A stretch of 64,000 bases of DNA, taken from positions 224,001-288,000 of the forward strand of contig CM000431.1 in assembly GCA_000165345.1 (NCBI GenBank), written 5' to 3'. Positions within the stretch are counted from its first letter, which is position 1, and each line of letters begins with the position of its first letter. Shown here one piece after another: positions 1 through 29,157 of the stretch. The notes under the pieces were generated by a model, which saw nothing but the letters and a program-made list of their open reading frames with translations, did not search any database and was not told the origin of the DNA. Both the position numbers and the translations under genes were made by a program.

Positions 1-3000
1 ATCTTTAAGCAGTTTGGACGTGGATTCCCAACTGGAGGATATGAATCTACGTCAAATTCTAAAGATAATAATGGTTTTTATCATCCAAATCTCGATACTA
101 GTACCCAAGAATACACTCCTTTGATTCCTTATGGTCAAAATGCTCCTTTCTTACCGGTTGGAGTTCCTGTTACTGATGATCAGGGTTTGGTAGTTCCTCC
201 TGGTTTCTACTTTAATAAAACAACAAGCCAATATGAGCCTTTGGGATCAGCTGAGGATTCCAATTCTTTAAGACCACCAGTTCCTTTCCAACTTGTACAA
301 GGAATTGAGGAGTGTGAATTGGAGATTTATTCCTTCTGTAACTCCACAAAAGTTACAATGGAGTCTTTAATGACTAATTTGGATAAGAAAGATTGGACAT
401 TATTTGCAATGGTTTCAACTGGAATTCCAACTTATACTCCAGATTCAAGCCCTAACTTTAATTTTCAATTTAAATTCAAAGATAAACAGGATCAGATCAA
501 ATTTTCTATAGACATTTCAAACTCTTCTATTGTTATTTCAGGTTCAGATTCATCCCAAATTGCTGAAGCTGTGTCTCCACAATGTGGTCCTTATTGTTCA
601 ACTTATCCAAAAGGATACTTCACATTTTGGTTACAAAAGAAGTTCAGTGAAAACAAGTTTGTTGTTGGAGTGAACTACAATAATCTTTTATTGGTGGAAT
701 TTGATTCAGATAATAGAGATTTTACTAAGATAGATACTGGTGGAGACCCTGGAGCCACTCTTTCTCCTTCTAAAACTTACGTTTTATGGAATCTCTTAGA
801 TATCTCAAATCCACCAAAACAAAGTGCTACAACAACTACTACGAAGACCCCTTGGGATCAAGATATTAAGGATGAGTGCCATTTGGAACTTGACCAACCT
901 TGTAGAGGAAATGATTCAATTCTGGATAAACCTCTTAATCAAGGAGATATTGTTTGGATCAATACTTTATTAGGGAAATCTGATCAACCAATAGAAGTAG
1001 ATGGAAAAAATTATTGGTTTGAATATAAGTTCCAAAAAGAGTCAGATTCTGTGATTTCTTTACTTTTCAATGAAACCTCTGTTGCTATTTACTTTTATGA
1101 TAGAGCTGAGACTTTATCATCTAAGTATACTAATCAACATTTATTATATGAAGGAATGGATATTACACTTGGTATTACATCAAATAGATTTGGCTTCTTC
1201 TTGGTTAACAAAGATCTTAATGCATTAATTCATGATCCAAGCTTGAAGATTTTGGATTATAATAAGATTCTACAAGAAAGTGTTCCTAATCATATTTCTA
1301 ACTTCTTACTCGAGGAAGGATTCACTTATCCCAAAAACATCTTATTTAGAGGATATGAAACTTGTACTTTATATGGGGATTGTAAAACAGTTTCTAAATC
1401 GTGTGAGTCTCAAGTTTTAATAGAAATGTGTAATCCAATTCAAGCAGGAACTGAGATCTCAATTCAAACAAGTATTTCACAAACTAATATTAATAATGGA
1501 ACTTGGGGAGCTCCTTTAATTCAAAGTGATCTAATTAACATTTTCCATATTGGAAATGAAGATAAGGATGTATATACAGTTTATATATATACAAATAGAA
1601 TGGTGTTGGAGGATATGGTTAACTTTATTTCTTGTGGAGGACCATATCCTGGTGGTAAAACTTTGAGTTCAAGTTCAAACTTGGAATGGTCAATAGCATT
1701 GGATTCAAAGAAGTTCCTATATTTAAATGTTTTAGATGAGGAAAATACTGAAATGAAAACAATTTGTTCTATGTCATTAATTGGAGGTATTCATTCTTTA
1801 GATTATATTTCACCAAGTGGTTTTAAACCAAATAATTCAGTATTTACTCAAAAGATAAACTCATTCAAACAAGGAGGTTATAAGTCTACTTCTGATGTTA
1901 ATTTGGGATATTACTTTCCAATATATGACAATTCCAAAAATGAGTTTTTTCCTGATCTTGTTTATGGTGATAGTTTCCCTTTTTATCCTCCTGGGGTTCA
2001 TCCTGCTCCGATAGTTGGAGATCAATTAAATACTCCTCCAAATTATCATTATAATACAACAACTGGTCAATTTGAGAAGAATGAAGATCATTCAGATCCT
2101 GATGAAATTAATCCATTCCAACCAAATCATATTGTGAATGGTATTTCAGAATGTAATCTTGACTTATTTACAACATGTAATGCTTCATCCATAAAGATTA
2201 TGCCAGAAGATATAACCTTTAAAGAGTTTTGGACTTTATTTGTAATTTCAAGTACAGGAATTCCAAACAAAGGTTCTGAATCAGATCCATCCAATTATAA
2301 ATACGAGTTTATGAAGACTGATACTGGAGTAGAGGAATTAGTCTTAAGTTTAACTATTTCCAATGAAACTGTTATTTTGAAGAATGAAAAGACAAATGAA
2401 GAAGAAGTAGTAGGATCACCACAATGTGGTCCATATTGCTCAACTTATCCAAAAGGTTACTTTGCTTTCTGGTTAACTTTAGATTCAATTAATAAAAAGT
2501 ATATAGTTTCTATTGAAAATAATTCAAAGAAATTGGTAGAAATTAATTCAGAAGGAGCAGATTTTAATCAAGTTAAACCATGCAAATCTTGTCAAGGAAC
2601 TCCCGATTCTGAAATGTATAGTATTTGGAAATTGTTTAATTCAAAGATTCAACCAACAGAAGTTGCTACTACTACTACTACTACTACTAAGACTCCTTGG
2701 CAGGATCAAATTATAGAGAATTGTATTGTTTCATATGATTCTGATCCTTGTAAAGGAACTAATGTAGAAATTGATCCTGAATTACAAGAAGGAGATATTC
2801 TATGGATCAATACAACTTTACAGATTTCTGATCCAAAAGTTGAAATAAATGGGAAATCATATTGGCAAGGAATTCAATTAAAGAAAGATGATAAGAAAGT
2901 CTTTTCTATACTATTTGATGAATTATTTATATCTATAAATATTGAAGATTCTGGTAATGAATACTTTTCACCATATACAAACCAGACTTTAGGTTATTCT

Positions 3001-29157: not shown

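Follow-up and report, generated by a model that had tools for sequence, protein, structure and literature searches.

Cryptosporidium parvum carries on chromosome 3 a gene, cgd3_720, which at ~35 kb is the largest in its ~9.1-Mb genome. Most of it lies in the stretch of DNA analysed here, the window (64,000 nucleotides (nt), positions 224,001 to 288,000 of the forward strand of contig CM000431.1, GenBank assembly GCA_000165345.1). The gene has been annotated since the 2004 genome, has been cited as a polymorphic, stage-specific "mucin", and is described as a probable mucin, very large at 11,700 amino acids (aa) and "with signal peptide" (PMC3305300). An original prediction, made from the letters of the window alone, had implicitly treated the locus as undescribed, which it is not. 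What does appear to be undescribed in the searchable literature is a module of three domains with a predicted galectin fold, the restriction of these domains to the genus together with a 1-to-13 expansion of the module, and concerted evolution limited to one segment of it.

By predicted fold, cgd3_720 is alike to the tandem-repeat galectins (galectin-8, galectin-9, and Tl-gal of Toxascaris), yet sequence identity to them is 7–12%, and galectins have 1–4 domains per chain as opposed to at least 42 in cgd3_720. Classical galectins are cytosolic with reduced Cys, whereas the domains of cgd3_720 are predicted to be disulfide-bonded, N-glycosylated, and secretory. Galectin-like folds also occur in CpTSP7-9, in the chromosome 3 product QOY42690.1, and in Toxoplasma M2AP, which are micronemal or extracellular zoite proteins with one or two such domains, whereas cgd3_720 is a female-specific tandem array with mucin rods. 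A profile of the C domain of cgd3_720 (described below) finds none of these proteins among 1.84 billion, and there is thus no detectable sequence kinship. With the folds of CpTSP7-9 and QOY42690.1 known from structure prediction, cgd3_720 fits an emerging pattern. A preprint on an "introgressed galectin-like protein" concerns the other chromosome 3 gene, at 839–844 kb (QOY42690.1), and not cgd3_720.

Other described systems resemble cgd3_720 in composition or in manner of evolution. The glycoproteins gp900, gp40/15, and Gp20 have, as does cgd3_720, long runs of consecutive Thr that are expected to be rigid and densely modified with O-linked N-acetylgalactosamine (O-GalNAc), and gp900 and gp40 reportedly hold sporozoites to the inside of the oocyst wall (PMC5549699). 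However, gp900 is micronemal with a transmembrane domain and gp15 is anchored by glycosylphosphatidylinositol (GPI), whereas cgd3_720 has no anchor, is six times the size of gp900, and is expressed in females rather than in asexual stages. The oocyst wall proteins (COWPs) are secreted, Cys-rich, female-made, and modular like cgd3_720, but they consist of small Cys-knots (type I/II repeats and chitin-binding domains), whereas cgd3_720 would be built of 150–190-aa beta-sandwiches, with Cys at 1.9%. The Jacob lectins of the Entamoeba cyst wall are likewise secreted, Cys-rich, modular, and made by the encysting stage, with lectin domains alternating with Ser/Thr-rich spacers, but their domains are of other families than those of cgd3_720. 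Abalone VERL is a giant female-made secreted tandem-repeat glycoprotein, some repeats of which are homogenised by concerted evolution, and its fold is ZP-N. That fold is unrelated to the one predicted for cgd3_720, in which no rapid interspecific divergence is seen.

Identity, modules, and predicted fold

The original prediction of a single giant open reading frame (ORF) over nearly half of the window is borne out. Frame +1 is free of stops from nt 1 to the stop codon (TAA/TAG) at 29155–29157, a run of 9,718 codons, and the remaining two forward frames hold 558 and 1,447 stops over the identical stretch. With window DNA of ~30% G+C, a chance origin of such a frame is impossible. We identify the ORF as cgd3_720, 5'-truncated at the window edge, because its neighbours match C. 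parvum chromosome 3 proteins exactly and because the lengths agree. The partial C. hominis orthologue P0073 aligns over its aa 1979–3347 with window aa 1–1369 at 97% identity, which places 1,978 aa upstream of the window, for a sum of 11,696 aa against the 11,700 aa annotated. The source had been guessed to be an invasive parasite, and C. parvum is one. Judged from C. hominis P0073, the upstream 1,978 aa comprise a signal-peptide-like start, divergent C1/C2-like domains, and one further canonical C pair. The array does extend beyond the window, as had been proposed, but with a single extra canonical C pair in those 1,978 aa it is only slightly bigger than its visible part rather than longer by many modules.

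Three motif anchors recur in the ORF (SPQCGP[YLF]CSTY 14 times, C[SGDN]G.[YLH]P 14 times, and the NPFQP junction 13 times) with a period of ~630 codons, and they delimit 14 modules, in agreement with the earlier estimate of at least 14. The order within a module is A, poly-Thr, C1, C2, D. Domain A measures 177–194 aa and has four invariant Cys in the spacing C-x7-C plus C-x3-C, much as foreseen (~190 aa, four Cys). The C region measures 349–400 aa; its size and all the motifs listed for it hold, but it has 8 conserved Cys over about 350 aa rather than 9–10 (14 copies aligned for both A and C). The Thr/Ser spacer and the Pro-rich junction are also as described: the spacer has 5–39 residues in 13 of the 14 modules and 360 in module 8, and the D linker, highly conserved, has 77–86 aa. 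Across the A and C alignments, five N-glycosylation sequons per module keep their positions. Thr spacers amount to about 6% of residues, the bulk being folded Cys-containing domains. The last module departs from the others, in that its C region is divergent (23% identity to that of module 3, C3) and a unique tail of 373 aa comes after it. The beginning of the window is, as supposed, the remnant of another module, although it spans nt 1–288 (aa 1–96) and not merely the first 120 nt. The features of the gene are as follows, all on the + strand, with modules defined by motif boundaries and alignments.

1..29157, +: 3' 83% of the cgd3_720 coding sequence, 9,718 codons plus stop (open frame; C. hominis P0073; exact chromosome 3 neighbours)
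1..288, +: "module 0" remnant, C2 end and D linker, aa 1–96 (GGYESTS at aa 12; orthologous to C. hominis P0073 1979–2074 and C. canis P0004 653–876)
289..2124, +: module 1; A 289–828, spacer 829–843, C 844–1890, D 1891–2124
2125..3981, +: module 2; A 2125–2667, spacer 2668–2688, C 2689–3747, D 3748–3981
3982..5895, +: module 3, used for the structure models; A 3982–4560, spacer 4561–4596, C 4597–5652, D 5653–5895
5896..7827, +: module 4; A 5896–6462, spacer 6463–6537, C 6538–7596, D 7597–7827
7828..9744, +: module 5; A 7828–8397, spacer 8398–8442, C 8443–9501, D 9502–9744
9745..11685, +: module 6; A 9745–10293, spacer 10294–10356, C 10357–11442, D 11443–11685
11686..13668, +: module 7; A 11686–12255, spacer 12256–12372 (39 aa), C 12373–13431, D 13432–13668
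13669..16764, +: module 8; A 13669–14232, poly-Thr 14233–15312, C 15313–16512 (Asn/Thr-rich loop insertion), D 16513–16764
14233..15312, +: 360-residue Thr tract of module 8 (putative mucin rod; mixed Thr codons)
16765..18660, +: module 9; A 16765–17337, spacer 17338–17364, C 17365–18429, D 18430–18660
18661..20553, +: module 10; A 18661–19215, spacer 19216–19242, C 19243–20295, D 20296–20553
20554..22464, +: module 11; A 20554–21135, spacer 21136–21159, C 21160–22227, D 22228–22464
22465..24447, +: module 12; A 22465–22995, spacer 22996–23016, C 23017–24210 (Thr-rich insertion in C1), D 24211–24447
24448..26346, +: module 13; A 24448–24999, spacer 25000–25023, C 25024–26115, D 26116–26346
26347..28035, +: module 14, terminal and divergent; A 26347–26883, spacer 26884–26952, C 26953–28035
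28111..28956, +: C-terminal tail domain or domains, aa 9371–9652, possibly two repeats of ~120–130 aa (conserved to C. muris and C. andersoni)
28957..29157, +: acidic Asn/Asp/Glu-rich C-terminal extension, aa 9653–9718, plus stop (C. parvum and C. hominis)

AlphaFold models of the A and C regions of module 3, with the 14 internal copies as alignment input, bear out the guess of a beta-rich, lectin-like fold. The C model has a mean predicted local distance difference test (pLDDT) score of 82.8 and consists of two all-beta subdomains (residues about 1–160 and 175–350). In a Foldseek search of the PDB, its top matches were tandem-repeat galectins (about 330 columns, E 1e-9, probability 1.0), including Toxascaris Tl-gal, galectin-8, galectin-9, and the adenovirus fibre galectin domain. 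The A model is an 11-strand beta structure of low confidence (pLDDT 59.6, predicted template modelling score 0.62). Comparison by hhalign relates A to C1 (probability 94%, E 9e-8) and, more weakly, C1 to C2 (probability 46%, E 2e-4), and the cross-matches of the three domain hidden Markov models (HMMs) on orthologues agree with this kinship. The module is thus predicted to consist of three distantly related galectin-like (concanavalin-A-like) beta-sandwiches, A, C1, and C2, and not of two domains as the original prediction had it, which gives at least 42 such domains in the window. The ~130–140-aa beta-sandwich jelly-roll fold that characterises the galectin family is present in the predicted models.

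By sequence, on the other hand, the domains would not be classed as true galectins. Neither A nor C belongs to a named family, as had been stated at the outset: Pfam gave no significant match for modules 1–3 or the last 758 aa (none for module 3, A3-C3), the best being sub-threshold noise well under the gathering cut-offs (HmuY and NAGLU_N, E about 0.08), and Gal-bind_lectin (PF00337) did not match modules 1–3 or the terminal region at E<=1. Sequence profile searches of the PDB gave no match for C even at E<=10, and only chance-level matches for A and the tail (E 0.3–1.4). When the profiles were aligned to the carbohydrate recognition domain of human galectin-3, hhalign probabilities were 0.1–0.4%. 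Across the 14 copies each of A and C, neither His nor Arg occurs in an invariant or nearly invariant column, and the canonical galectin sugar site (H-N-R...W-E-R) therefore cannot be conserved. We considered the NNGTWG motif as a remnant of the galectin "N...WG.E" sugar site and rejected it, given the lack of an upstream H-x-N-x-R, the low-confidence loop, and the non-significant alignments; the motif lies in a loop with pLDDT below 50 (C-model residues 220–226) and doubles as an N-glycosylation sequon. Type I/II Cys-rich repeats of COWPs were likewise not found, Pfam having no significant match in any region queried, and the Cys pattern of A and C is unlike dense Cys-knot repeats.

The 360-residue tract of module 8 contains 358 Thr and two Ser, encoded by ACT (160), ACA (100), ACC (65), and ACG (33). 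All four Thr codons are used, and the tract is under selection as protein and is not a pure slippage repeat. ACC and ACG make up 27% of its Thr codons compared to about 6.5% elsewhere in the gene, and recurring third-base patterns hint at higher-order internal duplications. The tract was 308 aa in the original (Iowa II) annotation (PMC3305300) and is 360 aa here, a difference consistent with the insertion/deletion (INDEL) hot spot reported at chromosome 3 240–245 kb (PMC9317183). It also causes a dip in GC skew (-0.585 at 14–16 kb). Two antisense ORFs over it (369 and 371 aa, 14205–15339, minus strand) were rejected as genes, being a by-product of the ACN repeat.

Several smaller features vary among modules. 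An Asn/Thr run (…TTTTNNNNNNNNNNKNNTSNT…) is inserted in C2 of module 8 (about 16.2–16.3 kb), a Thr-rich stretch of ~40 aa in C1 of module 12 (about 23.1–23.3 kb), and 14 aa in C2 of module 13 (within 25024–26115); these low-complexity insertions resemble mucin-like loops budding from the sandwiches. The A domains of modules 2, 6, 11, 12, and 13 have an extra Cys pair near their C-terminal end (…PCCG…, …PCKSC…), i.e., six Cys and not four. The pair is also found in C. muris A domains, and it may be ancestral and lost in homogenised copies. The A motif SPQCGPYCSTYPKGYF (for example, window 4282–4329) is the most invariant of the protein, and its C-G-P-Y-C loop, where pLDDT falls below 50 (A-model residues 102–113), recalls the CGPC of thioredoxin. 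The equivalent positions read …SPYTNES… in C1 and …CSGPYP… in C2, with a P-Y core common to all. The loop may be a functional site.

Distribution and evolution of the modules

When 1.84 billion representative proteins were searched exhaustively by HMMER with the profile of the C domain (E<=0.001), 12 matches were obtained, 10 of which are real and all from Cryptosporidium (hominis, canis, bovis, andersoni, muris). The two weakest (an ENA metagenome protein and a Haliotis obscurin-like protein, each matched over 8 short stretches) were discarded because the matches are short, repeated, and of low complexity. No paralogues were found in this search. A word-prefiltered homology search had given 4 matches with a single sequence and 0 with the C alignment, which we ascribe to the prefilter and which the HMMER search supersedes. 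From these matches the domain family appears to be restricted to the genus Cryptosporidium, and an orthologue of cgd3_720 is kept in every sampled species, including the gastric ones. The C. canis protein P0004, which at 27% identity might pass for a distant paralogue, is a frameshifted orthologue fragment whose aa 653–876 match window aa 1–223 at 64%.

The complete orthologues of C. muris (3,523 aa) and C. andersoni (3,518 aa) have the N-terminal region, the module order, and the tail in common with C. parvum, but contain two A domains and three C pairs compared to 15 C pairs in C. parvum. In a neighbour-joining tree, a rough one without support values, the upstream C pair (C0) groups with the first C. 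muris pair and C14 with the last, whereas C1–C13 (numbered by module) are together sister to the lone middle C. muris pair; A1 groups with the first C. muris A domain. This pattern indicates that one ancestral module expanded roughly 13-fold in a lineage-specific manner, and the comparison places the growth of the array from one to thirteen modules after the split from the gastric species.

The modules have not evolved evenly along their length. Between modules 3, 4, 5, and 7, the linker+A blocks are 86–99% nt-identical with a synonymous divergence (dS) of 0.13–0.30 (A4, for example, is 92–94% nt-identical to A5 and A7), whereas the C domains of the same modules are 50–65% nt-identical with dS ~1, and identity switches sharply at the GGYESTS motif that closes C2. 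This suggests that gene conversion or unequal exchange has been restricted to the D-A segment of about 900 nt. The identity mosaic spans window 3748–14232 (modules 2–8), and the clearest D+A blocks end at 6462, 8397, and 12255.

Between C. parvum and C. hominis, identity is 97.3% for A, 98.1% for C, and 97–98% for the tail, and it is 95% for the D linkers, where the differences fall mainly in modules 2–4. The ratio of nonsynonymous to synonymous divergence (dN/dS) between modules is 0.3–0.6. With interspecies identities of 97–98%, these values indicate that every domain is maintained by purifying selection.

Draft genomes have the locus in fragments, and it has been reported as a "hot spot" of INDELs and single-nucleotide polymorphisms (SNPs); both are explained by the homogenised blocks and the poly-Thr tract. 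The short-read drafts of C. hominis and C. canis have the orthologue as several partial or frameshifted entries (P0001, P0002, P0064, P0067, P0073, P0003, P0004, P0063, P0065), and the second halves of P0003 and P0004 are out-of-frame translations rich in Pro, Arg, Gly, and Ala. The published SNP/INDEL "hot spots" here may in part reflect mapping among near-identical D+A blocks, and caution is needed before the signal at cgd3_720 is read as host-driven selection.

Expression, secretion, and possible roles

By real-time polymerase chain reaction, cgd3_720 transcript was absent at 2–24 h, and the signal was divided between 48 h (93%) and 72 h (7%) (PMC3305300). In RNA sequencing (RNA-seq) of sorted parasites, females had log2 counts per million (CPM) of 9.19 in vitro and 9.34 in vivo compared to 3.79 for asexual stages, i.e., a log fold change of 5.41 or about 42-fold for female vs. 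asexual stages (PMC6877471 Supplementary file 4); because CPM are not normalised for length, a gene of 35 kb has an inflated absolute level, while the fold change is unaffected. By these published data, cgd3_720 is made by the female gamete, as is expected of an oocyst-wall component, and the transcripts narrow the earlier reading of a "surface, wall or adhesion structure" to a female-gamete product. Females synthesise and store oocyst-wall material, with COWPs kept in wall-forming bodies (PMC6877471), and in a review of the single-cell atlas, "mucins and C-type lectin" belong to the second wave of gene expression in females, during which the wall is built (PMC13657310).

The chemistry of the protein would suit a secreted one. 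The N-termini of the C. hominis (MIITKWVYNVFLILFFQAFLVVLAS) and C. muris (MGMISNKTVIFLFYIIFIISDIDVVYSS) orthologues are both signal-peptide-like, which supplies the N-terminus that the original prediction had sought upstream. No transmembrane- or GPI-like hydrophobic segment is present in the visible 9,718 aa (19-residue Kyte-Doolittle maximum 1.29). The visible ORF contains 181 Cys (the 1.9% given above), with conserved sets that are even (4 per A and 8 per C), and 143 N-X-S/T sequons. As in mucins, extended Ser/Thr tracts (14 spacers of 5–360 residues) occur in a protein predicted to be secreted. The O-GalNAc transferases of C. parvum nearly saturate consecutive Thr, as was shown for Gp20 and gp900 (PMC5549699). 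By analogy, the poly-Thr segments of cgd3_720 are expected to be densely O-GalNAc-modified, stiff, and extended. Mucin domains measure ~0.25 nm per residue, and the 360-residue tract would thus span about 90 nm. The tail is 34–35% identical to those of C. muris and C. andersoni, with many invariant columns; its alignment had no Pfam match, and as a homology query it had a single match, the C. canis orthologue. Evidence of an internal duplication into two repeats of ~120–130 aa is weak (hhalign probability 28%, E 6e-4), and by eye the tail may resemble the SEA-type alpha/beta modules of mucins. The 66-aa acidic extension is found in C. parvum and C. hominis and is absent from C. muris and C. 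andersoni.

With moderate confidence, we propose that cgd3_720 is a secreted glycoprotein, stabilised by disulfides, that forms part of the matrix of the oocyst wall or of its inner fibrils. The macrogamont would make it as an anchorless secreted bead-and-rod filament of about 11,700 aa, in which the beads would be three disulfide-stabilised, N-glycosylated galectin-like sandwiches per module, and the rods O-GalNAc-dense poly-Thr between A and C1, with the Pro-rich linker joining modules. It would be stored and then secreted alongside other oocyst-building material, and its destination may be either the wall, in its glycoprotein layer or glycocalyx, or the fibrils that lie between the wall and the sporozoites. 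At that site, the lectin-fold domains could bind neighbouring glycans or proteins multivalently, and the mucin rods would serve as spacers.

A bolder version of the matrix proposal, to which we give little credence at present, is a self-assembling "lectin-mucin" polymer, in which ~50 galectin-fold domains would recognise O-GalNAc (Tn) on the protein's own rods and on gp900 and gp40. Since the 15 C1-C2 pairs are each 98% identical between species and 40–60% different from their neighbours, each could have a specificity of its own. If so, a non-covalent multivalent network of glycans and protein would form the inner fibrillar matrix or the tethers of the oocyst, the 13-fold expansion of modules in intestinal species would tune the length or valency of this matrix, and the QCGPYC loop of A could add disulfide exchange with the COWP scaffold.

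Several points weigh against a role in the oocyst matrix or against sugar binding within it. The A model is of low confidence, and both the alignment to galectin-3 and the lack of invariant His and Arg argue against a galectin-type sugar site. The review of the atlas does not name cgd3_720 among its second-wave mucins, and it notes that female transcripts can be stored for the next generation of sporozoites (PMC13657310); cgd3_720 mRNA is also relatively high in oocyst and sporozoite RNA-seq data (PMC7193590). The searchable literature yielded no record of where the protein is located, of a knockout, or of its detection by proteomics. The gene is absent from the searchable supplementary tables of papers on COWPs (PMC12548878), AP2-F (PMC10233709), and the oocyst glycoproteome (PMC5549699).

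Alternatively, cgd3_720 could be a mucin of host adhesion or invasion, displayed or shed by sporozoites or merozoites, with lectin-fold domains that bind intestinal glycans, which is how the "mucin" annotation and the work on virulence would have it by default. Its Thr tracts resemble those of gp900 and gp40, its fold is like that of CpTSP7-9, which are proposed host-glycan adhesins (PMC10034466), it is listed among putative virulence mucins with the relatively high oocyst/sporozoite signal just mentioned (PMC7193590), polymorphism at the locus is known from C. hominis and from populations of C. parvum, and maternal products can persist into sporozoites (PMC13657310). However, no transcript is seen in the first 24 h, while merozoites form repeatedly (PMC3305300), and enrichment in females is 42-fold (PMC6877471). 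In what look to be bulk time-course columns of a Tandel supplementary table, values run low, low, high by set of triplicates, which we take to be sporozoite, 24 h, and 48 h. In addition, the protein has no membrane anchor, and polymorphism in C. parvum is of INDEL type at the poly-Thr tract rather than adaptive substitution (PMC9317183), with C domains 98% conserved relative to C. hominis. Transcription in the female gamete favours the oocyst wall or matrix over sporozoite adhesion, and we consider an adhesion mucin unlikely.

It is similarly doubtful that cgd3_720 is no more than an inert polymer for bulk or hydration, or a filler that lubricates the oocyst or the parasitophorous vacuole, with the sandwiches serving only as protease-resistant spacers. 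The residues of the canonical galectin sugar site are not conserved, the length of the Thr tract is variable (308 aa vs. 360 aa), and the title of one report proposes GP900 as a lubricant (PMC9111948). Yet strongly conserved surface motifs that do not vary among modules, such as SPQCGPYCSTYPKGYF, NNGTWG, and CSGPYP and the linker motif YHYNTTTGQFEK, are kept from C. muris to C. parvum, for which pure spacers would hardly account, and each C domain is kept at 98% between species while differing by 40–60% from its neighbours.

Female-specific expression, a giant secreted tandem-repeat glycoprotein, and partial concerted evolution (linker+A dS of 0.13–0.3 beside C dS of ~1) would also suit a gamete-recognition or egg-coat molecule on or around the macrogamete that captures microgametes, by analogy with abalone VERL and sea-urchin EBR1. 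The linker+A pattern of cgd3_720 recalls the homogenised repeats of VERL. Rapid interspecific evolution of the C domains, which such a role leads one to expect, is not seen, given the identities between the sister species (A 97.3%, C 98.1%), and dN/dS is below 1 throughout. The review cited above puts fertilisation genes early and mucins later, without naming cgd3_720 (PMC13657310). A role in gamete recognition is improbable in our view.

Finally, although ~900-nt blocks at 90–99% identity every ~1.9 kb are hard to assemble and the gene does fall into partial models in the drafts of C. hominis and C. canis, an assembly artefact or a set of several separate genes, which the original prediction had named as a possible refutation, is highly improbable in view of the stop-free frame (9,718 codons vs. 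558 and 1,447 stops in the other frames), the colinear C. hominis fragments with a unique best placement at 94–97% (next-best 55% or lower), the complete C. muris and C. andersoni orthologues with the same N-terminal region, module order, and tail, and a summed length that matches the independent Iowa II annotation.

Neighbouring genes and meaning for Cryptosporidium biology

The downstream neighbours of cgd3_720 are ordinary housekeeping genes (30389–63590), and nothing suggests that they form a functional cluster with cgd3_720. Eight downstream ORFs are exact matches to C. parvum proteins (Iowa II, IOWA-ATCC), and these include an alpha/beta-hydrolase (CPATCC_001055), a ULP1-like protease, CPHLJ_3g790, CPHLJ_3g810, a POP4-like subunit of RNase P, a SWIB-domain protein, and CDPK1. 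Two stretches are without long ORFs, at about 34.0–36.4 kb and about 47.9–50.2 kb, the latter with ~25% GC. The features with coordinates are the following.

54955–55026, +: tRNA-Glu, anticodon TTC (ARAGORN; Rfam 57.8 bits)
61974–63590: CDPK1 (exact C. parvum protein match)

Expression of cgd3_720 is confined to the female stage, by which the chlorine-resistant oocyst is built, and it is as this oocyst that a leading cause of childhood diarrhoea is transmitted. In place of the label "mucin", the gene now has a concrete architecture of predicted galectin-fold triads, putative O-glycan rods, and a conserved linker and tail. It offers defined recombinant units (one A domain; one C1-C2 pair) and a unique, taggable C-terminal tail, and gives testable hypotheses for what may be a component of the oocyst wall or matrix beyond the COWP family.

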